23,279 nt of DNA, taken from positions 1 through 23,279 of the IMG/VR virus record IMGVR_UViG_3300029816_000015; one strand, written 5' to 3'. The notes below the pieces were generated by a model that searched no databases, was not told the DNA's origin, and worked only from the letters and a program-made list of their open reading frames with translations. Positions 14,045 through 20,570 of this stretch are shown one piece after another. Position 1 is the stretch's first letter, and each line of letters starts with the position of its first letter. This DNA is from a virus (Duplodnaviria; Heunggongvirae; Uroviricota; Caudoviricetes). The position numbers and the translations under genes are program-made.

Positions 14045-14084
14045 ATTATTATTATTTTAATTGAGAGAGAGTAAAATAACTTGG

Positions 14085-14157
14085 AGAATCCGAAGGGACT
14101 CGAACCCTTATAGACCTGTTTTGCAGACAGGCACATAGCCATTTCTGTCACGGATTC
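14085..14157 (-). tRNA. tRNA-Cys (anticodon GCA)
   Basis: Hand-folded: acceptor CGGATTC pairing, T arm AAGGG-TTCGAGT-CCCTT, anticodon loop CTGCAAA, encoded CCA at 14082-14084, U73. Confidence 0.7.
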
Positions 14158-14164
14158 AAATTGG

Positions 14165-14254
14165 AGGAAGATACCAGACTTGAACTGGTACACCGATTTC
14201 TCAGCTACTGGCAGTTTAGCAAACTGCTCCCTTACCTTTTAGGGTTAATCTTCC
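14165..14254 (-). tRNA. tRNA-Ser (anticodon GCT), long variable arm
   Basis: 90 nt; acceptor GGAAGAT/ATCTTCC, T arm ACCAG-TTCAAGT-CTGGT, anticodon stem GCAGT/ACTGC with loop TTGCTAA, long variable arm; CCA encoded. Confidence 0.7.
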
Positions 14255-14255
14255 A

Positions 14256-14990
14256 TTATTTCTGTAATGCGTTCTTCATTTCTGGTGTTGCAATAGTATC
14301 AATTACACCAGTTTTACAAGCATCATCAAACCAGTCTGGTAAGATACCTGCTAAGAACCCATTGATATTCGTTTTAAGGTACTCTGCAATAAGGGCAGCT
14401 TCTTCTTCAATCATCTGCACAACTTCATCTGCATAAGCTGTAATCTTCGAGATACCTTCATTAATCTTACTAACAGCTTGGTTAGCTAAATCAGAAACAG
14501 TATCAAGACCTTTATCAATAGCATCTTGTAAGTCACTTAATACATCATTAACACCGTCTAGTGCACTGTTAATTGTGTCAATAGCTTTTTGACCATACTC
14601 TGTAGCAACACCCATAATACCACTAAATGGTGTACAACCAACTTGCTCTCCTGCTGCACCCATAACATTGGAGTAGCCTTTTGCTACCTGCATACGTGAG
14701 GAAAACTCATCAATAGACTTTTGACCATAATCTGTCAATGTCTTAGTGGTTGATGTAGTGCTTGTCAGACTCGTTGTAAAGCTATTAAGCAGAGCTGTTG
14801 TAAGTCCAGCAGCAATGAGCTTATCCTTCATTGTAGGGTCTGTTACAGAGCTAATAGAGCTTACAAGTGATGTAGAGGCAGCCACGGTTCCACCTAGAAC
14901 TGCTGCACCAGTAATAAGGGGATTAGAAAACCCTCTACCGGTTTTTAAGAGATTAAAAATCTCCTTACCTTGTTCTGTCATCTCTTTCAT
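14256..14990 (-). CDS. Hypothetical protein embedded in the tRNA array
   Basis: 245 aa from ATG 14988-14990 with RBS AAGGTG 5 nt upstream; the ORF-track 5' extension to 15053 overlaps tRNA-Phe and is rejected. Ala/Thr/Ser-rich, helical C-terminal half. Confidence 0.55.
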   Translation of the reverse strand: MKEMTEQGKEIFNLLKTGRGFSNPLITGAAVLGGTVAASTSLVSSISSVTDPTMKDKLIAAGLTTALLNSFTTSLTSTTSTTKTLTDYGQKSIDEFSSRMQVAKGYSNVMGAAGEQVGCTPFSGIMGVATEYGQKAIDTINSALDGVNDVLSDLQDAIDKGLDTVSDLANQAVSKINEGISKITAYADEVVQMIEEEAALIAEYLKTNINGFLAGILPDWFDDACKTGVIDTIATPEMKNALQK

Positions 14991-15008
14991 TAAGCACCTT
15001 TGAAATTG

Positions 15009-15083
15009 GTAGTCCAGTGGGATTTGAACCCTCTTCTCATGTTTTTCAGACACGCGCTTTAACCATATAAGCTACTTGGACTA
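15009..15083 (-). tRNA. tRNA-Phe (anticodon GAA)
   Basis: Acceptor TAGTCCA/TGGACTA; T loop TTCAAAT; anticodon stem-loop CGTGT-CTGAAAA-ACATG; D stem weak. Confidence 0.55.
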
Positions 15084-15091
15084 TAAATTGG

Positions 15092-15164
15092 GGTGACCTA
15101 CGGGATTTGAACCCGTATAGACCATGTTCACAGCATGGGTCATTACCTTTTATGATAAGGCCAC
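15092..15164 (-). tRNA. tRNA-His (anticodon GTG)
   Basis: Acceptor GTGGCCT/AGGTCAC, D stem TCAT/ATGA, anticodon stem CCATG/CATGG with loop CTGTGAA, T arm ACGGG-TTCAAAT-CCCGT, CCA encoded. Confidence 0.7.
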
Positions 15165-15198
15165 ATTTAAGGACTCTCGTAAGAACCCTTAGAAGTGG

Positions 15199-15271
15199 CA
15201 GCGGCATAAGGATTTGAACCTTAATAAGACAGCTTCAGAGACTGTTGCATTGCCAGTTATGCTATACCGCT
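15199..15271 (-). tRNA. tRNA-Gln (anticodon CTG)
   Basis: Acceptor AGCGGTA/TGCCGCT, D stem GCAT/ATGC, anticodon loop CTCTGAA, T arm TAAGG-TTCAAAT-CCTTA, CCA encoded. Confidence 0.65.
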
Positions 15272-15279
15272 AAATTTGG

Positions 15280-15355
15280 TACTCCATATCGGATTCGAAC
15301 CGATACATAACACAGATTTTAAGTCTGGCCTCTCTGCCAATTGGAGTAATGGAGC
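15280..15355 (-). tRNA. tRNA with Leu anticodon TAA but short variable arm (76 nt)
   Basis: Acceptor GCTCCAT/ATGGAGT, U8, D stem CTC/GAG, anticodon stem CAGA/TCTG with loop CTTAAAA, 7-8 nt variable loop, T arm ATCGG-TTCGAAT-CCGAT, A73, CCA encoded. Confidence 0.5.
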
Positions 15356-15360
15356 ATTGG

Positions 15361-15433
15361 CGGGGGATGTTGGAATTGAACCAACTTCTTCGATTTCAAA
15401 GACCGAGGTTTTAACCTTGTAAACTAATCCCCT
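15361..15433 (-). tRNA. tRNA-Gln (anticodon TTG)
   Basis: Acceptor with A1-C72 mismatch, T arm GTTGG-TTCAATT-CCAAC, anticodon stem TCGGT/ATCGA with loop CTTTGAA, CCA encoded. Confidence 0.6.
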
Positions 15434-15441
15434 TTAAATCT

Positions 15442-15999
15442 TTACTTTCTTAGTGGATGAATAAAGAATGCCAACATAACTCTTTCCCTTGAGAATGCTC
15501 TTTCTTCTGGGACAACACTTTTAAGTTTCCACCCAACATAAATTCTCCAGTAGAATTGCTTACCAAAGACTTTAATTGACGGGATAAAAGCGAATAATCC
15601 CCAAGCATTACTGTTCCACATTAGGAGATAACCTGTCTGATTATCTTCAGGGTTAGAACTTACATTGATATTACCTTTCCACTTAGTAACATCTTTTACA
15701 TCTCTTCCTAACACATGGTAAGAGAAGTTATAAGCTTTGTTTCTCCAGAGCCAACCAACTCTCTGCATATAGACACCAAGCTTACCAATCTTTCTAATCT
15801 TAGCCCATCGTTCGACATGACCTTTATCACCATCAATTGGGTTGTCATATGTCTCCATCCATCTGAATCCAAAAGGGAGATGTCCTTTCTTCTCACTGTA
15901 GAATGGAACTACGAAAGGTGCTAAGATAACTGCTAAGATTGCTGCAAATGGCTCTAACAAAGCTAAGAAAATCCATGAAGCATACTTCAAATATCTCAT
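15442..15999 (-). CDS. Hypothetical membrane protein embedded in tRNA array
   Basis: 185 aa ORF with RBS AAGAGG upstream of ATG; N-terminal hydrophobic helix (WIFLALLEPFAAILAVILAPFVVPF), Trp/Lys-rich remainder; flanked tightly by tRNA genes. Confidence 0.55.
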   Translation of the reverse strand: MRYLKYASWIFLALLEPFAAILAVILAPFVVPFYSEKKGHLPFGFRWMETYDNPIDGDKGHVERWAKIRKIGKLGVYMQRVGWLWRNKAYNFSYHVLGRDVKDVTKWKGNINVSSNPEDNQTGYLLMWNSNAWGLFAFIPSIKVFGKQFYWRIYVGWKLKSVVPEERAFSRERVMLAFFIHPLRK

Positions 16000-16021
16000 C
16001 TAAATAGCCTCTTTAAATTGG

Positions 16022-16094
16022 CGCAGGATAAGGGATTCGAACCCCTATTAACAGCTTCGTAGACTGTTGCTCTATCCATTTGAACTAATCCTGC
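16022..16094 (-). tRNA. tRNA-Arg (anticodon ACG)
   Basis: Acceptor GCAGGAT/ATCCTGC, T arm AGGGG-TTCGAAT-CCCTT, anticodon stem ACAGT/GCTGT with loop CTACGAA, CCA encoded. Confidence 0.65.
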
Positions 16095-16102
16095 AAAACT
16101 GG

Positions 16103-16177
16103 TGTTCCAAGACGGATTCGAACCGTCACTAATACAAGGTTTGAGCTTGCATCCTCTGCCAATTGGGATACTGGAAC
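16103..16177 (-). tRNA. tRNA with Leu anticodon CAA but short variable arm (75 nt)
   Basis: Acceptor GTTCCAG/TTGGAAC, U8, D stem TCC/GGA, anticodon stem GCAAG/CTTGT with loop CTCAAAC, 6-nt variable loop, T arm GACGG-TTCGAAT-CCGTC, A73, CCA encoded; length fixed by adjacent tRNA-Val. Confidence 0.55.
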
Positions 16178-16181
16178 ATGG

Positions 16182-16254
16182 TACTCACTAAAGGACTTGA
16201 ACCTTTTTTCTTCATCTTGTAAGGGTGATGTTTTACCATATAAACTAAGCGAGT
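16182..16254 (-). tRNA. tRNA-Val (anticodon TAC)
   Basis: Acceptor ACTCGCT/AGTGAGT, T arm AAAGG-TTCAAGT-CCTTT, anticodon loop CTTACAA, CCA encoded. Confidence 0.65.
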
Positions 16255-16353
16255 ATGAAAGAGGTCTGAAGTTGTGCCGCTAACTCAACTCCGTGGAATT
16301 TGTTATGGTCTTCAGTTGACTCAAAGCGGTCTTTCACTTGACCTCTAAATTGG

Positions 16354-16425
16354 TGCTCCCACAAGGATTCGAACCCTGATAAGTTGCTTACAAGGCAACC
16401 GTAATAGCCAATTATACGATAGGAG
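16354..16425 (-). tRNA. tRNA-Thr (anticodon TGT)
   Basis: Acceptor GCTCCTA/TGGGAGC, T arm CAGGG-TTCGAAT-CCTTG, perfect anticodon stem GTTGC/GCAAC with loop CTTGTAA, CCA encoded. Confidence 0.65.
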
Positions 16426-16436
16426 CATTAATTTGG

Positions 16437-16508
16437 AGCATCCAGAGGGAATCGAACCCTCAACCTCAGTTTGGAAGACTGTAATTTTCCCGTTTAAACT
16501 ATGGATGC
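16437..16508 (-). tRNA. tRNA-Gly (anticodon TCC)
   Basis: Acceptor GCATCCA/TGGATGC perfect, T arm GAGGG-TTCGATT-CCCTC, anticodon loop CTTCCAA, CCA encoded. Confidence 0.7.
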
Positions 16509-16517
16509 ACTAATTGG

Positions 16518-16590
16518 TGGAGTCACTGAGAATTGAACTCAGTTCCCAAGTTTGCAAAACTCGAATTTTAACCATATAAACTATGACCCC
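16518..16590 (-). tRNA. tRNA-Ala (anticodon TGC)
   Basis: Acceptor GGGGTCA/TGACTCC with G3-U70, T arm CTGAG-TTCAATT-CTCAG, anticodon loop TTTGCAA, CCA encoded. Confidence 0.7.
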
Positions 16591-16599
16591 ATTGCTTGG

Positions 16600-16672
16600 T
16601 ACAGGTGGAGGGAATTGAACCCATCGTCTTACTGATTAAGAGTCAGCCGCATAACCATTTTGCTACACCTGC
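16600..16672 (-). tRNA. tRNA-Lys (anticodon CTT)
   Basis: Acceptor GCAGGTG/CACCTGT, D stem GCA/TGC, anticodon stem CTGA/TCAG with loop CTCTTAA, T loop TTCAATT with only 3 clean T-stem pairs, CCA encoded. Confidence 0.55.
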
Positions 16673-16682
16673 ATTAATTTGG

Positions 16683-16757
16683 TAGGAGACAAGGGATTCG
16701 AACCCTCAAACACCAACTTCTAAGGATGGTAGGTTTACCAATTACCGTCAATCTCCC
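16683..16757 (-). tRNA. tRNA with Leu anticodon TAG but short variable arm (75 nt)
   Basis: Acceptor GGGAGAT/GTCTCCT (two G-U pairs), anticodon stem CCATC/GTTGG with loop CTTAGAA, T arm GAGGG-TTCGAAT-CCCTT, A73, CCA encoded; two extra nt between acceptor and D stem. Confidence 0.45.
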
Positions 16758-17011
16758 ATTAAATCTTTTTAGAGAACTTCTAAGAACCTAAGCAACAAGG
16801 TTCCACAACAAGCTGTAATAACCTTAGAAGCCCTCTAAAAAGACCTAATTTGGTCTTTGCATAGTCTTGTTTAATCCGGTGACTAGAACCTTTGGAGAGC
16901 TTGATATATCTCTTCTCCGTGACACCTACTAGGTGCTTTATCAGTGTACGACAATACACGAGGGATAAACCGAAAATGCGAGCAAGCATGGACGGTGTAA
17001 ATCTTATTAGG

Positions 17012-17099
17012 CGGTAAGTAAAGGAGTCGAACCCTCACCGTATCTCTACAGTGGCAACAGTTTTCAAGACTGTTTGGCTGCCATTAGCCGCTACCTACC
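17012..17099 (-). tRNA. tRNA-Ser (anticodon TGA), long variable arm
   Basis: 88 nt; acceptor GGTAGGT/ACTTACC, 3-bp D stem, perfect anticodon stem ACAGT/ACTGT with loop CTTGAAA, long variable arm, T loop TTCGACT. Confidence 0.6.
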
Positions 17100-17115
17100 C
17101 CTAATAAGATTTTGG

Positions 17116-17195
17116 CATGGGACGGAGGAGTTGAACCCCTTTGAAACGGTTTTGGAGGCCGTTGCTCATGCCTTAGAGTCTTAACATCGTCCCAT
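17116..17195 (-). tRNA. tRNA-Trp (anticodon CCA), enlarged D region
   Basis: 80 nt; acceptor ATGGGAC/GTCCCAT perfect, anticodon stem ACGG/CCGT with loop CTCCAAA, T loop TTCAACT, CCA encoded; D region about 7 nt longer than standard. Confidence 0.5.
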
Positions 17196-17340
17196 ACTGT
17201 AATTCGAAGCTTACCGTATTTTCACAACACTGTAAAGCCCCTTCTCAGATTATTTACATGTTCTGGAAAACATGAGATACAGACCACCTCCTTACACGGA
17301 GACCCGATAAGGTCGTCTAAGCAATCTGCTAACTATTTGG

Positions 17341-17414
17341 CACACCCTACAGGATTCGAACCTGTAACTCAATGATTAGAAGTCATTTGCTCTGTCCAGT
17401 TGAACTAAGGGTGC
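17341..17414 (-). tRNA. tRNA-Arg (anticodon TCT)
   Basis: Acceptor GCACCCT/AGGGTGT, T arm ACAGG-TTCGAAT-CCTGT, perfect anticodon stem AATGA/TCATT with loop CTTCTAA, CCA encoded. Confidence 0.7.
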
Positions 17415-17617
17415 ATTAATCTTTAAAAACTCTCTTAGAAAGCCCTTAAAGATGCCCACCTTATTAATCATACCGTGGGCTAGTACGCCAAATTCTTTGA
17501 TGAGGGATTGGAAGACCTCACTGGTGTTTAGCCTATCAAGCTACTGCCAGAAAAACATTGTCGTTTGCATTTATTTTAAATTTGCAAAATAGACGCTACG
17601 CAACGAAAACTAAGGTT

Positions 17618-17646
17618 ACTATAAAGTGGTCACATCTAAATGTCAA
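17618..17646 (-). promoter_or_regulatory. Sigma70-like promoter inside the tRNA array (minus sense TTGACA-N17-TATAGT)
   Basis: -35 TTGACA at 17646..17641 and -10 TATAGT at 17623..17618 with a 17-bp spacer; predicted start near 17610, about 195 nt upstream of tRNA-Arg(TCT). Confidence 0.5.
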
Positions 17647-17664
17647 CAACTTTATTGAAATTGG

Positions 17665-17737
17665 TACTGGTAGGTGGAATCGAACCACCGATGTTCCCTT
17701 ATCAGGGGAGTGTTATAACCTTCTTAACTATACCAGC
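17665..17737 (-). tRNA. tRNA-Ile (anticodon GAT)
   Basis: Acceptor GCTGGTA/TACCAGT, T arm GGTGG-TTCGATT-CCACC, anticodon loop CTGATAA, CCA encoded. Confidence 0.7.
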
Positions 17738-17741
17738 TTGG

Positions 17742-17815
17742 AGGTTCAGATGGGATTCGAACCCACATTCATAGGGCTTATGAGACCCTTGCATTACCTT
17801 ATCTGCGACTGAACC
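17742..17815 (-). tRNA. tRNA with anticodon CAT (Met elongator or Ile2-type)
   Basis: Acceptor GGTTCAG/CTGAACC perfect, D stem GCA/TGC, anticodon stem AGGGT/GCCCT with loop CTCATAA, T arm GTGGG-TTCGAAT-CCCAT, CCA encoded. Confidence 0.65.
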
Positions 17816-17822
17816 ATATTGG

Positions 17823-17895
17823 TAGAAGTGGAGGGATTCGAACCCATCGCCTGTCAGATTAAAAGTCTGCCGCATCACCATTCTGCTACACTTCC
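17823..17895 (-). tRNA. tRNA-Lys (anticodon TTT)
   Basis: Acceptor GGAAGTG/CACTTCT, anticodon stem CAGA/TCTG with loop CTTTTAA, T loop TTCGAAT with GGG/CCC core as in the other Lys tRNA, CCA encoded. Confidence 0.55.
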
Positions 17896-17901
17896 ATTAA
17901 A

Positions 17902-18040
17902 TTATCTTTGTAGATAAGCTACCCAGACTTGCTTAAGGTCTGTAGCGATGTGCCTTGTTGGGTTTAAATCTAGAATTTACCCTTTCACCCTTTGTGGTCG
18001 CATACTCACAGGTAAGCTTAATAACTTATCTACAAAGATA
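17902..18040 (-). repeat. Long hairpin: 17-bp perfect inverted repeat (TTATCTTTGTAGATAAG / CTTATCTACAAAGATAA) enclosing about 105 nt
   Basis: Arms at 17902-17918 and 18024-18040 are exact reverse complements; interior holds smaller hairpins including CCAGAC-N8-GGTCTG (17922-17943); no tRNA fold found. Confidence 0.5.
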
Positions 18041-18044
18041 ATTA

Positions 18045-18176
18045 CCAGACCGTTGTTTATCATCTTAAGTGCTACCATTACACCAACTCGACATCTGCCG
18101 AGTGAAGGAATCGAACCTTCGCCTTTTCTTTACCGGAGAAATAGATTGTTTAAGTTTTGCTGTAAACGGTCTTCTG
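18045..18176 (-). ncRNA. Candidate Y-RNA-like ncRNA (YrlA-type) with permuted tRNA-like module
   Basis: Closing helix from minus-sense CAGAAGACCGUU (5') and AACGGUCUGG (3'); interior in minus sense has T arm GAAGG-UUCGAUU-CCUUC, then hairpin ACUCGGC-AGAU-GUCGAGU, then D-arm-like UGGUGUAAUGGUAGCAC. No anticodon arm. Confidence 0.4.
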
Positions 18177-18188
18177 TAAATTTGTTGA

Positions 18189-18265
18189 GCCAGACCAAGT
18201 TTTAAATTTTCAAAATTAAATTGGCTTTAAATTTTAAGTAACTTGCTGAATTTGGTCTTCTGCTC
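18189..18265 (-). ncRNA. Bulged-helix hairpin element, same closing helix as 18045..18176, AT-rich interior
   Basis: Arms GCCAGACCAAG (18189-18199) and TTGGTCTTCTGC (18252-18263) pair as AGACC/GGUCU plus a 3-nt bulge plus GG/CC; loop about 50 nt without tRNA-like arms. Confidence 0.3.
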
Positions 18266-18277
18266 CTTTAAAGAATA

Positions 18278-18314
18278 CTCGTAAGAACCCTTTAAGGGAG
18301 GGGCTAAATAGCCC
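18278..18314 (-). promoter_or_regulatory. Conserved spacer motif (minus sense CTTAAAGGGTTCTTACGAG) next to small hairpin GGGCTA-AA-TAGCCC
   Basis: Near-identical to the motif at 15174-15195 (minus sense CTTCTAAGGGTTCTTACGAGAG); weaker copies at 16770-16790 and 17428-17450. Function unknown. Confidence 0.3.
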
Positions 18315-18326
18315 TCTCAAAATTGG

Positions 18327-18400
18327 CGGTTACGATGAGACTTGAACTCACATCATCTCCCGTGACAGGGGAGTATTTTATCCAGTTAAACTACATAACC
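18327..18400 (-). tRNA. tRNA-Asp (anticodon GTC)
   Basis: Acceptor GGTTATG/CGTAACC, T arm GTGAG-TTCAAGT-CTCAT, perfect anticodon stem CTCCC/GGGAG with loop CTGTCAC, CCA encoded. Confidence 0.65.
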
Positions 18401-18409
18401 TTTATTTGG

Positions 18410-18494
18410 TGTGCCGTGTAGGAGTCGAACCTACCGAGTCTCAATGACAAGGGATTTACAGTCCCCACCGCTACCATCTACGGGATAACGACAC
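18410..18494 (-). tRNA. tRNA-Tyr (anticodon GTA), long variable arm
   Basis: 85 nt; acceptor GTGTCGT/ACGGCAC, D stem CCG/CGG, anticodon stem GGGGA/TCCCT with loop CTGTAAA, long variable arm, T arm GTAGG-TTCGACT-CCTAC, CCA encoded. Confidence 0.65.
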
Positions 18495-18506
18495 ATTTAA
18501 ATTTGG

Positions 18507-18580
18507 CGGTTAGTCAGGGATTCGAACCCTGTGCCATTCGCTTAACAGGCGACCGCACATACCTTATGTGCTTCCTAACC
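18507..18580 (-). tRNA. tRNA-Asn (anticodon GTT)
   Basis: D stem GCAC/GTGC perfect, anticodon stem GTCGC/GCGAA with loop CTGTTAA, T arm CAGGG-TTCGAAT-CCCTG, CCA encoded. Confidence 0.65.
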
Positions 18581-18590
18581 TTAATATATT

Positions 18591-18655
18591 GCCAGACCGT
18601 GTTTTTTTTTCTTTTATCCGCAAAAAGTAGTTTATTGCTGCATACGGTCTTCTGC
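18591..18655 (-). ncRNA. Bulged-helix hairpin element (third copy)
   Basis: Arms GCCAGACCGT (18591-18600) and ACGGTCTTCTGC (18644-18655); 7-bp helix plus 3-nt bulge plus G-C pairs; 43-nt loop with a poly-T run on plus. Confidence 0.3.
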
Positions 18656-18663
18656 AAAATTGG

Positions 18664-18737
18664 AGGCGGGTGCAGGAGTCGAACCTGCCGATGCCATGCT
18701 AATGAGACATGTGAGACGCCCTTTCTCTATACCCGCA
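18664..18737 (-). tRNA. tRNA with anticodon CAT (second copy; Met, fMet or Ile2-type)
   Basis: Acceptor TGCGGGT/ACCCGCC with 1:72 mismatch, T arm GCAGG-TTCGACT-CCTGC, anticodon stem CATGT/GCATG with loop CTCATTA (U at position 37), CCA encoded. Confidence 0.5.
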
Positions 18738-18748
18738 ATTCTTAATGA

Positions 18749-18821
18749 CCAGACCAAATCTCTTCTTTGTCCGATTTAGCTTCAGATGAATAAGATTAAG
18801 TTTGCTGTAATTGGTCTTCTG
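18749..18821 (-). ncRNA. Bulged-helix hairpin element (fourth copy)
   Basis: Arms CCAGACCAAA (18749-18758) and TTGGTCTTCTG (18811-18821) enclosing an AT-rich 50-nt loop. Confidence 0.3.
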
Positions 18822-18831
18822 TCAAAACTGG

Positions 18832-18906
18832 CGTTCCAGAAGGGATTTTAACCCTCAAATATCCACTTTGAAAGAGTGGTGACTATACCATTTTGTCTAC
18901 TGGAAC
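18832..18906 (-). tRNA. tRNA-Glu (anticodon TTC)
   Basis: Acceptor GTTCCAG/CTGGAAC perfect, D stem GAC/GTC, perfect anticodon stem CCACT/AGTGG with loop CTTTCAA, unusual T loop TTAAAAT, CCA encoded. Confidence 0.6.
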
Positions 18907-18916
18907 ATTAATTTGG

Positions 18917-18990
18917 TCTCTGTTGGAGGACTTGAACCTCCGGCCTTACCGCCCCAAACGGAACACTCTACCAAGCTGAGCTAAACAGAG
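18917..18990 (-). tRNA. tRNA-Pro (anticodon TGG); first gene of the array in transcription order
   Basis: Acceptor CTCTGTT/AACAGAG perfect, T arm GGAGG-TTCAAGT-CCTCC, anticodon loop TTTGGGG, CCA encoded. Confidence 0.65.
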
Positions 18991-19016
18991 ATAAACTTTT
19001 CAAACTCTATGTAACC

Positions 19017-19046
19017 ACTTTAACATTATTTTTTAGTGATTGTCAA
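19017..19046 (-). promoter_or_regulatory. Sigma70-like promoter for the tRNA array (minus sense TTGACA-N18-TAAAGT)
   Basis: -35 TTGACA at 19046..19041, -10 TAAAGT at 19022..19017; predicted start about 10-20 nt upstream of tRNA-Pro. Confidence 0.45.
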
Positions 19047-19155: not shown

Positions 19156-19521
19156 TTACCAGATATAACGGTCAACCATTACTGCTTTGAGCATTACGCT
19201 GATTGGGTCAAACTTCTCACCACCAAGCAGAGCTTTTAAAGTGGCTGGAGAGAACCCTGATACCATCGCTACACCATTATCCTTAACAGATACTTCGCAA
19301 GTACCATTACGGTTTGCTAAGTACCAGAATACTAGTTGTGGCATTTCGTATCCAGCTTTTTTGTACTTACTCTGAATTGCTTCAAAGTTTGTACGACCAT
19401 TTGCACCATCAACCTGATTAAACTCCATATCAGAGAAGATAATAAGCTTACTTGGCATATCTTTCTGAGTCAAGTTGTTTCTCTTACCTATCTCAAGAAT
19501 ACGGTCAAAGCTGCTTGTAAG
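19156..19521 (-). CDS. C-terminal part of Ro60/Rsr-like (or DUF2828-like) vWA-domain protein, out of frame with N-terminal part
   Basis: Frame open from just after a TAA at 19522-19524; encodes LTSSFDRILEIGKRNNLTQKDMPSKLIIFSDMEFN... (second half of a vWA fold). ORF track entry 19156..19473 begins at an internal TTG. Confidence 0.55.
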   Translation of the reverse strand, partial: LTSSFDRILEIGKRNNLTQKDMPSKLIIFSDMEFNQVDGANGRTNFEAIQSKYKKAGYEMPQLVFWYLANRNGTCEVSVKDNGVAMVSGFSPATLKALLGGEKFDPISVMLKAVMVDRYIW

Positions 19522-20570
19522 TTAGTTGAACCATATTCAACATGACGCATTACCTGACGATGACGGTTTCGTAAATCACCACTCAGTTCAATGAAATGAG
19601 GGTTTGTTGAATAGACCATTAACTCATCTTTAAAGCAACCTGTATTGCGTTCTGCTACATACAAGGCAAGTGATACACCAATATCAAGGGCAGTGATTGA
19701 ACCAAGATTCACCCAAGACATTGAGCTTGAAACATCAGTCATACACAAGATGTTCTCACCTTCTGCCATCCAGTTTGGTAGTGCTTTCCACTGCTCATTA
19801 GCAACATCTGCATTACCATGCTTGATAGACTTAATCACATCGTATGGGTAGACAGCACCAGCATTAATCTTAGCCTCACCTTTTGATAAGGACTCAATGT
19901 AAGCTTTGTAGCGTTCTCCATCTTTGCGGTTAAAGAGCTTTTGGTAACGTGCAGCAGCAAGAGACGGAATCTTACTGTAATCAATCTTACCAAACTCATT
20001 AGCAGAGATTTTTTGCTCAACCGTATCAGACAGTGCAGATAACAGTGTGCGGTATTCTTTCTCGCTTAAGTTTGCAAACTTACAGAAACGTTTTACAAAC
20101 TGTTTGTGTCGTGGTTTTACTCGTGGTAACCACTTGGCTGCTAAACCTGCTGTCTCAGGGTCTAGTAATGCTGCTTCTAAATGCTTAAAGGCATCTGTCT
20201 CAAAACGAGTACCTACGAAGATTTTGAAGTCATCAAAACGACCAAGTTCTGCAATCTTATCCATAATACGAAGAAACTGTGTAGGCTCTAAAACTTTATC
20301 TTCGATTGCTTGAAGTAAAACAGTTCTGAAGGCTTTACGCTCACCCATACCTTCTCGTACATCTCGCATGTGAAGCAAAATACGAACTGCAACATCAACA
20401 TCCTCACGCAAAGCTTTGTAGAACAAGTCTGGTAAGATTTCTACATTGCTACGGCTTGAACCAGCAGCTTTGTAAAAGTCCACAAGAGCAGACATTGATG
20501 AAGTATGGTTTACAGCACCATTTTCAGTTCGACCTGCATGAAGGTGCGCATGTTTAAATAATTCGCTCAT
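19488..20570 (-). CDS. N-terminal part of Ro60/Rsr-like (or DUF2828-like) protein: helical domain plus start of vWA domain
   Basis: 360 aa; RBS AAGAGAG upstream of ATG; helical N-terminal about 280 aa, then DxSxS motif (CMTDVSSSMSW) typical of a vWA MIDAS; ends at TAG 19488-19490 inside the vWA domain. Confidence 0.6.
   Translation of the reverse strand: MSELFKHAHLHAGRTENGAVNHTSSMSALVDFYKAAGSSRSNVEILPDLFYKALREDVDVAVRILLHMRDVREGMGERKAFRTVLLQAIEDKVLEPTQFLRIMDKIAELGRFDDFKIFVGTRFETDAFKHLEAALLDPETAGLAAKWLPRVKPRHKQFVKRFCKFANLSEKEYRTLLSALSDTVEQKISANEFGKIDYSKIPSLAAARYQKLFNRKDGERYKAYIESLSKGEAKINAGAVYPYDVIKSIKHGNADVANEQWKALPNWMAEGENILCMTDVSSSMSWVNLGSITALDIGVSLALYVAERNTGCFKDELMVYSTNPHFIELSGDLRNRHRQVMRHVEYGSTNLQAALTVFLR

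Follow-up and report, generated by a model that had tools for sequence, protein, structure and literature searches.

The window analysed here, a stretch of 23,279 nucleotides (nt) from IMG/VR virus record IMGVR_UViG_3300029816_000015 (Caudoviricetes), carries an array of transfer RNA (tRNA) genes, three of which have leucine anticodons. All three encode leucine tRNAs (tRNALeu) of type I, that is, without the long variable arm of class II tRNAs. The array, the three Leu genes and the long-arm tRNAs beside them were located with ARAGORN, and the Leu genes were scored with the Rfam tRNA model (gathering score, 29).

14082-18990, minus strand: tRNA array of 26 genes, the three Leu genes included (ARAGORN)
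15277-15355, minus strand: tRNA-Leu(UAA), type I (ARAGORN; Rfam tRNA model, 47.5 bits)
16100-16177, minus strand: tRNA-Leu(CAA), type I (ARAGORN; Rfam tRNA model, 44.0 bits)
16680-16757, minus strand: tRNA-Leu(UAG), type I (ARAGORN; Rfam tRNA model, 40.0 bits)
14162-14254 and 17010-17099, minus strand: long-arm Ser tRNAs (ARAGORN)
18407-18494, minus strand: long-arm tRNA-Tyr (ARAGORN)

At the gathering score, the Rfam model confirms 24 of the 26 ARAGORN tRNAs, and almost all array genes encode their CCA. By ARAGORN, Leu(UAA), Leu(CAA) and Leu(UAG) measure 79, 78 and 78 nt with the encoded CCA and 76, 75 and 75 nt without it; the shorter lengths agree with the coordinates and the 75-76 nt size given in the original prediction. 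The long arms that it described for Ser and Tyr tRNAs of the same array are likewise present, with Ser(gct) at 93 nt, Ser(tga) at 90 nt and Tyr(gta) at 88 nt (ARAGORN). The Leu variable loops contain no helix and read GUUAUGU (7 nt) in Leu(UAA), AUUAGU (6 nt) in Leu(CAA) and UGUUU (5 nt) in Leu(UAG). The first two fall within the 6-8 nt originally predicted, but the third does not, and ARAGORN counts only 4 nt there by adding a sixth anticodon-stem pair. The anticodon loops are all of the ordinary 7 nt with U33 present (CUUAAAA, CUCAAAC and CUUAGAA, in the same order). Furthermore, Leu(UAA) lies 2 nt and 5 nt from its flanking Gln genes, and Leu(CAA) lies 1 nt and 5 nt from Val and Arg (ARAGORN). 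Both genes are thus wedged 1-5 nt from their neighbors with no space for a long arm, as predicted, and therefore no alternative boundary could add one. No software-predicted boundary yields a long arm, and the anticodons stand in normally sized loops.

Based on their D arms, the three molecules fall into two structural subtypes. Leu(UAA) has G1.U72, A73, U8, A9 and a D stem of 3 base pairs (bp), CUC/GAG, with the D loop CAAUUGGCAGA. Leu(CAA) has G1-C72 and A73, and its D arm, UA-UCC-CAAUUGGCAGA-GGA, is of the type shared with Leu(UAA). Leu(UAG) has G1.U72 and A73 with a class II-like D arm (U8 G9 ... GG-AAUUGGUAA). The UAA and CAA molecules have 3 bp and an 11-nt loop in this arm, and the UAG molecule has 3 bp and a 9-nt loop with an extra base before the stem. 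Accordingly, UAA and CAA share a class I-like core (A9, C12-G23, C13), and the core of UAG is class II-like (G9, G12-C23, G13). An A73-CCA end is present in all three, although for Leu(UAG) it needs the ARAGORN register, from which Rfam differs by one base. The Rfam register would give U73 followed by ACCA, unlike all other genes of the array. A Leu(UAG) variant with C72 restores G1-C72.

Over positions 15000-19000, the window matches many genomes of Felixounavirus, the Felix O1-like myoviruses that infect Escherichia, Salmonella and Shigella, at 96-97% identity, and by this sequence identity it is a Felixounavirus. The original prediction had found no further Leu tRNA, and this holds both for the window (ARAGORN) and for the complete genome of vB_EcoM_Shy (96.8% identical), in which ARAGORN finds 26 tRNAs, all in the array, with only these three for leucine. 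The phage supplies tRNAs for nearly every other amino acid.

The three genes are strongly conserved among the relatives. Felix O1 (AF320576) has a copy of Leu(UAA) with 100% identity, and 216 of 264 matching phage records carry this gene at 99% identity or more; for Leu(CAA), 249 of 292 matching phage records reach at least 95%. Leu(UAG) varies more, with 71 records at 99% identity or more and several other alleles. The anticodon stem of these alleles is CCAUC/GUUGG in the window, with one U.U, UCUCG/CGAGA in Meda and CCUCG/CGAGG in FM4b. Across the Felixounavirus alleles, the anticodon and the rest of the molecule are fixed, the odd D arm is kept and the stem replacements are fully compensated. 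We also compiled a set of 170 unique Leu tRNAs with short arms from viral contigs, whose alignment was made with no reference to structure. Its consensus fold is a cloverleaf, with canonical pairs in 97.7% of stem cells and between three and six pair types at nearly all stem positions. In addition, the GenBank records of two relatives annotate the Leu genes as normal tRNA-Leu; one states the use of tRNAscan-SE, and the other marks the His and Cys genes of the array as pseudo but not the Leu genes. A pseudo-tRNA, a decaying gene or a chance match is ruled out by near-identity in hundreds of genomes together with the compensatory stem changes.

Erwinia phage Roscha1 (Kolesnikvirus), of the same subfamily, also has three Leu tRNAs (CAA, AAG and UAA), all of 77-78 nt, with long-armed Ser and Tyr tRNAs. 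A BLAST search of Leu(UAA) against 5,426 E. coli genomes gave no match, even at E = 10; this result excludes near-identical host or prophage copies and is uninformative on distant similarity. Separately, Salmonella phage FG1m carries a hybrid gene (locus L002, 5999-6076) that joins the 5' part of Leu(CAA) to the 3' end of Leu(UAA) and leaves the acceptor stem unpaired. Its probable origin is a deletion between the identical T arms of the two genes, with loss of Arg(ACG), the DUF7338 open reading frame (ORF) and Gln(UUG).

To understand how such molecules might be charged, we compared them with the identity set of E. coli leucyl-tRNA synthetase (LeuRS). Its determinants are A73, the A15-U48 Levitt pair, G18G19, A20a, G18-U55, G19-C56 and U54-A58 (Giegé and Eriani, PMC9976931). 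Neither the anticodon nor the long arm is a determinant for this enzyme, and E. coli tRNALeu variants that lack the arm stay active (PMC9976931). All three phage tRNAs carry A73, U8 and A14, A15, a variable loop ending in U48, G18G19-N20-A20a and the T loop UUCGAAU, which contains U54, U55, C56 and A58. The tertiary pairs of the identity set are thus predicted to form in them. Among viral short-arm Leu tRNAs (n = 169), U48 is present in 98% and A73 in 94%.

The D arm was examined in a Leu-blind viral sample, in which contigs were picked by a generic class I D-arm word. In this sample, the combination of a 3-bp D stem and a D loop of 10 nt or more is found in 76% of long-arm Leu tRNAs, in 81% of short-arm Leu tRNAs and in 9% of other short-loop tRNAs. 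For the D arm of Leu(UAG), 12 of the 15 nearest neighbors are Leu tRNAs, nine of them long-armed. The neighbors of the UAA/CAA arm are less clear-cut, with Leu as the top class and generic class I arms close. This subtype can be written as U8 A9 N-Y-C C-AAUUGGCAGA-G-R-N. Viral tRNAs that combine the CCAAUUGGCAGAG D arm with a short loop have a Leu anticodon in 121 of 124 cases, and these cover all six Leu anticodons and both codon boxes. One body occurs with both NAA and NAG anticodons and is therefore a Leu body. We also considered G1.U72, which is present in two of the three window Leu tRNAs, as a mark of the short arm and rejected it; among viral tRNAs, it occurs in 40% of short-arm Leu, 39% of long-arm Leu and 12.5% of other isotypes.

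The anticodons match the codon use of the phage. The window has a G+C content of 39.8%, and the Leu codons of its ORFs (5,784 codons) are UUA 27.7%, CUU 28.3%, CUG 13.4%, CUA 12.4%, UUG 12.0% and CUC 6.1%. In E. coli, CUG makes up about half of Leu codons, and UUA and CUA are rare. The UAA/CAA/UAG trio of the phage is that of the three minor Leu isoacceptors of the host and matches the codons that the phage over-uses. The same trio is present in Aeromonas phage AhP_Mru1 and Lactobacillus phage LpeD, and among the viral short-arm Leu tRNAs (n = 169), UAA accounts for 59, CAA for 40 and UAG for 49. With regard to modification, the anticodon loop of Leu(UAA) shows A36-A37-A38, the signature that MiaA uses. 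For E. coli TrmL, a tRNALeu(CAA) with the arm deleted is as good a methylation substrate as the wild type (PMC4615657).

The short arm is not special to this phage but is common in viral tRNA arrays and in other coliphage lineages. In the Leu-blind sample, the variable region is 8 nt or less in 16 of 50 unique Leu tRNAs (~30%), a count that drops to 13-14 of 50 once a doubtful call and two mini-arms of 8 nt are discounted. Among the Ser tRNAs of this sample, just 1 of 34 is this short, and in arrays of at least five tRNAs, none of 32 Ser and none of 10 Tyr tRNAs is. The loop has 5 nt in 72% of the viral short-arm Leu family (n = 169) and is enlarged to 7 and 6 nt in UAA and CAA of the window. 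Among the Demerecviridae, AhP_Mru1 has three 77-nt Leu genes, and in the Herelleviridae, LpeD also has short-arm Leu tRNAs. The T5 relatives BF23, Salmonella phage 5 and Bas32, the last of which grows on E. coli K-12, have a 74-nt short-arm Leu(UAG), and the tRNAL1 of BF23 and Salmonella phage 5 is the homologue of the window Leu(UAG). Their gene lies between tRNA-Ala and tRNA-Ser2 (Salmonella phage 5, locus L365, 3997-4073, identical to BF23; Bas32, locus L366, 8997-9073), where T5 (locus L004, 11625-11709) has a long-arm tRNALeu(UAG) of 82 nt (85 nt with CCA). A simple deletion of the arm between T5 and BF23 was rejected; the two sequences are too different, so the pair reflects allele replacement at the locus.

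Two of these phages carry further unusual tRNAs. In AhP_Mru1, tRNAs with CUA and UCA anticodons (locus L001, 1900-1974 and 2796-2869) would be amber and opal suppressors, and the record annotates suppressor tRNAs. In LpeD, ARAGORN reports a four-base anticodon, tttg, in an enlarged loop (locus L003, 5574-5645) and a 92-nt tRNA-Ile(tat) (locus L003, 4296-4387), and this stretch of the record has no annotated tRNA genes.

In prokaryotes, a scan of one genome per species for the short-arm pattern gave at least 120 loci. Among the matches listed, 94 loci consist of one tRNA each, in most cases a 74-nt, G+C-rich tRNALeu(UAA) from Actinomycetota; large tRNA arrays are found among the others, and some matches come from cyanobacteria and planctomycetes. 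The original statement that bacterial tRNALeu is normally of the long-arm type is therefore qualified to the extent that a short arm is not unprecedented, being found in Streptomyces coelicolor (PMC6614811) and in many Actinomycetota. In particular, Mycobacterium, Nocardia, Gordonia, Rhodococcus, Arthrobacter and their relatives have a solo chromosomal 74-nt tRNALeu(UAA) with a 5-nt loop and the CCAAUUGGCAGAG D arm (e.g. loci L286, L297 and L249). At least nine prokaryote loci among the matches listed hold a tRNATrp(CCA) with nearly the same D arm.

Type I tRNALeu itself is already known, and one of the closest described cases is that of S. coelicolor. Its type I tRNALeu(CAA) has a 5-nt loop, A73 and U8-A14 and is leucylated by the LeuRS of the same species, whose leucine-specific domain is adapted for this purpose (Fan et al. 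2019, PMC6614811). Charging of this type needs at least five loop nucleotides, nucleotide 48 included (PMC6614811), and the phage loops, counted as 5-7 nt and ending in U48, have this length. The solo short-arm tRNALeu of many Actinomycetota also have the CCAAUUGGCAGAG motif that the phage UAA and CAA molecules carry in their D arms. However, S. coelicolor has the type I molecule beside type II tRNALeu and with an adapted LeuRS, whereas the phage has only type I and would have to rely on an enterobacterial LeuRS; moreover, the Streptomyces molecule has C48 and the phage molecules have U48. A tRNALeu(UAG) from a mycobacterial array resembles them in its short loop, its location in a horizontally mobile array and its dissimilarity to the long-arm isoacceptor of the host (Behra et al. 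2019, PMC6582537), but it is covered by a single descriptive sentence with no phage link or identity-element analysis. By implication of the MenT3 report, the long loop is absent from two of the five tRNALeu of M. tuberculosis (PMC11541572). A review states that tRNALeu is long-armed everywhere except in animal mitochondria (PMC9976931), which does not quite hold in view of these bacterial cases.

Animal mitochondrial tRNALeu, such as human mt-tRNALeu(UUR), is similar in having a short loop and an identity of A73 and A14 with no arm (PMC9976931). In contrast to the phage molecules, which have canonical D- and T-loop tertiary nucleotides and would be served by a bacterial LeuRS, the mitochondrial ones have degenerate, floppy cores and a dedicated mitochondrial LeuRS. 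With the class II tRNALeu of E. coli and T5, the phage molecules share Leu anticodons, A73, A15-U48, a 3-bp D stem and an 11-nt D loop (A14 A15 N N G18 G19 N A20a). G1.U72 is a further likeness to the class II UAA isoacceptor, occurring in the tRNALeu(UAA) of E. coli itself (PDB 4AQ7, mentioned in PMC6614811). They differ from class II in lacking the long stem-loop, and in UAA and CAA, A9, C12-G23 and C13 replace G9, G12-C23 and G13. Also similar are the 'minimalist' arm-deleted E. coli tRNALeu constructs, which E. coli LeuRS leucylates if A73 and the D/T contacts are intact (Larkin et al. 2002 and Asahara et al. 1993 and 1998, summarized in PMC9976931). These were made in the laboratory, while the natural phage tRNAs keep exactly the features that the constructs require. 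In the open-access literature, we found no description of a phage short-arm tRNALeu, although one might exist in earlier Russian and Japanese studies of the tRNAs of T5 and BF23; the spread of type I tRNALeu in phages thus seems unreported.

We consider it likely that the three genes encode working Leu tRNAs, charged by the host LeuRS through A73 and the elbow and core of the molecule and supplementing the decoding of UUA, UUG and CUN codons. The phage tRNA operon would express the armless bodies, which host RNase P and host modification enzymes would process. The host LeuRS would then leucylate them by reading A73 and the D/T elbow and core shape (U8-A14, A15-U48, G18G19 and A20a) rather than the anticodon or arm, and the products would top up the minor host isoacceptors UAA, CAA and UAG for A/T-rich Leu codons. 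We infer from sequence that the phage Leu tRNAs are expressed, leucylated by E. coli or Salmonella LeuRS and used by the ribosome. As both SerRS and bacterial TyrRS make use of the arm, only tRNALeu would be free to lose it, which would explain why the Ser and Tyr tRNAs keep theirs. The missing arm may be inherited from an old armless lineage that moved between phages and Actinomycetota. Conservation, stem compensation, the encoded CCA, A73, the identity elements and the codon match all support the original suggestion that these are the Leu decoders of the phage despite their short arms.

Several points weigh against this reading. E. coli LeuRS 'could not leucylate' the S. coelicolor type I tRNALeu(CAA) and is described as type II-only (PMC6614811), and work from the same group reports that its leucine-specific domain favors large variable loops (PMC3643597). 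Leu(UAG) is also irregular: its acceptor and D stems are 3 nt apart (UGA), the D stem is imperfect, the anticodon stem contains a U.U mismatch, and its Rfam score is below those of the other two. However, given C48 in the Streptomyces molecule and U48 in the phage molecules, the negative cross-test may not transfer to the latter. U48 would complete the A15-U48 determinant, and together with the enlarged loops of UAA and CAA, it might explain acceptance by E. coli LeuRS. Strong purifying selection has kept type I tRNALeu in two or more unrelated lineages of coliphages, with E. coli and Salmonella as hosts, and this persistence argues that charging works.

Arm loss might instead, or also, serve counter-defence. 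The Leu decoders would be hidden from toxins or nucleases of the MenT or AbiEii type that read the arm of class II tRNAs, and a private Leu pool would be kept during abortive infection. MenT3 needs the long variable loop of tRNASer, and a class I tRNA becomes a target once this loop is grafted onto it (PMC11541572); for AbiEii, a preference for class II was inferred from the sizes of the modified tRNAs (2026 preprint, 10.64898/2026.01.19.700257). It would also fit that the short arm reaches about 30% of Leu tRNAs in viral arrays, while in the sampled bacteria it mostly affects a single isoacceptor, and that loss is confined to the class II isotype with a tolerant synthetase, the array Ser and Tyr tRNAs being all long. 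We nevertheless regard this as unlikely. The long-arm Ser and Tyr tRNAs of the phage would remain exposed, T5 copes with a long-arm tRNALeu, and neutral loss or descent from an old type I tRNA fits the data equally well. T4 likewise has a long-arm tRNALeu, and we know of no enterobacterial toxin that targets tRNALeu through the arm. Moreover, MenT3 prefers tRNASer over tRNALeu (PMC11541572). If counter-defence were true, the high frequency of type I in viruses would reflect an arms race, and E. coli LeuRS would have to accept type I molecules with A15-U48 and A73, contrary to the type II-only view.

The original prediction had allowed that the tRNAs are charged differently or are tRNA-like decoys, and we found no support for either in the sequence evidence. 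As uncharged decoys, they would act as sponges for host anticodon nucleases or tRNA-binding defence proteins and not as substrates of translation. The lack of the class-defining arm and the failure of E. coli LeuRS on one type I tRNALeu (PMC6614811) would be in keeping with this, and the operon does hold other tRNA-like RNAs that are clearly not decoders (element E4, described below). However, bait for an anticodon nuclease needs no A73, CCA, 7-bp acceptor stem or LeuRS set, all of which are conserved in at least 170 viral sequences, and the anticodons follow the Leu codons preferred by the phage, which has no other Leu tRNA; we therefore judge a decoy role very unlikely. Charging with another amino acid, as in sense recoding by the yeast mitochondrial tRNAThr(UAG) or the A. 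gossypii tRNAAla(UAG), is extremely improbable. Those mitochondrial reassignments do work through short-loop tRNAs with Leu anticodons (PMC7609411), but the phage molecules have no G3.U70 (positions 3-70 are U-A, U-A and G-C), no 8-nt anticodon loop and no G73, and their D arms are Leu-type. By established identity rules, other A73-accepting E. coli synthetases read anticodon bases that are absent here (PMC9976931), and the structural genes of the phage are ordinary homologues of standard-code proteins. There is also only a very slight chance that host LeuRS is insufficient and that a phage factor, either a DUF protein of the array or the Ro-like protein described below, enables charging. The negative result of E. 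coli LeuRS on the Streptomyces type I tRNA (PMC6614811) could be read in this way, and two conserved ORFs, DUF7338 and DUF7217, lie inside the array. Neither of them resembles a synthetase or a tRNA-binding protein, DUF7338 being membrane protein-like, and this gene context is not common to the unrelated type I phages of the Demerecviridae and Herelleviridae.

The occurrence of armless tRNALeu as a routine component of phage tRNA arrays stands against its presentation in bacteria as a rare exception that needs an adapted LeuRS (PMC6614811). Classic enterobacterial phages, Felix O1 and BF23, would need it in hosts with a LeuRS that is regarded as type II-only. This raises the question of whether E. 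coli LeuRS charges natural type I tRNALeu and which nucleotides permit it. The answer bears on tRNA identity rules and on annotation, as isotype models expect an arm; it also matters for designing compact or orthogonal Leu tRNAs and for the debated choice between codon supply and defence evasion as the role of phage tRNAs.

Other features within and beside the array are listed below.

19017-19046, minus strand: sigma-70-like promoter match immediately upstream of the first tRNA gene, Pro (TTGACA, 18 nt, TAAAGT, with TG)
17618-17646: second promoter match (TTGACA, 17 nt, TATAGT; 11/12), inside the array
15442-15999, minus strand: DUF7338 ORF of 185 amino acids (aa) with a hydrophobic N-terminus, conserved, inside the array
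14256-15053, minus strand: DUF7217 ORF of 265 aa, weakly similar to tape-measure and coiled-coil proteins, conserved, inside the array
18823-18746, minus strand: E1, paralogous element in the tRNA operon
18656-18589, minus strand: E2, paralogous element in the tRNA operon
18264-18187, minus strand: E3, paralogous element in the tRNA operon
18178-18042, minus strand: E4, paralogous element that encloses a permuted tRNA-like module
19156-20570, minus strand: phrog_850 'RNA-binding protein' gene (Pfam DUF2828 and DUF7788), directly upstream of the array

Both promoter matches are to the consensus only, and such matches are not enriched over shuffled sequence. At 17119-17193 on the minus strand, a tRNA-like sequence with a sub-threshold Rfam score (23 bits, E = 0.37) has a CCA triplet at the place of the anticodon; it may be a decayed tRNA-Trp, an isotype otherwise lacking in the array. 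The remaining sub-threshold Rfam matches (Plastid-ycf2, microRNA families and tmRNA) were rejected as antisense or chance matches to tRNA genes.

Elements E1-E4 have in common the 19-nt word AGAAGACC-N5-CAGCAA at the 5' end, with four matches where none is expected by chance, and YGGUCUGG at the 3' end; their closing helix covaries between copies. They match no Rfam family. In E4, the module has the T arm first, followed by the acceptor 3' strand, a loop, the acceptor 5' strand and lastly the D arm, with an acceptor-like hairpin of 7 bp. It is conserved in 27 Ounavirinae loci, with compensatory changes in this acceptor-like helix. The adjacent phrog_850 protein has 710 phage homologues, of which the mycobacteriophage ones are annotated 'Ro-like RNA binding protein'. 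It gave no TROVE match in Pfam or NCBIfam and no PDB sequence match, and a single-sequence AlphaFold model was too poor to use (confidence score pLDDT, 49). In the window, the gene is split by a frameshift near 19490 into ORFs of 360 aa and 105 aa, where relatives have a single ORF of 471 aa; the split is either a sequencing error or a pseudogene. Together, E1-E4 and phrog_850 resemble the bacterial Ro60/Y-RNA (YrlA) systems (PMC4201824) by analogy, although the motif of E1-E4 differs from the published one. Distant homologues of the Ro-like gene also lie within the tRNA clusters of Klebsiella phage phi1_175008 (locus L401, 4432-5130, 47% identity) and Campylobacter phage F374 (locus L402, 2421-3037, 36% identity). 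The elements that flank these genes have a closing helix, a conserved A/UCAGCAA motif and, in some copies, the permuted tRNA-like module seen in E4, which suggests a widespread phage protein-RNA pair.

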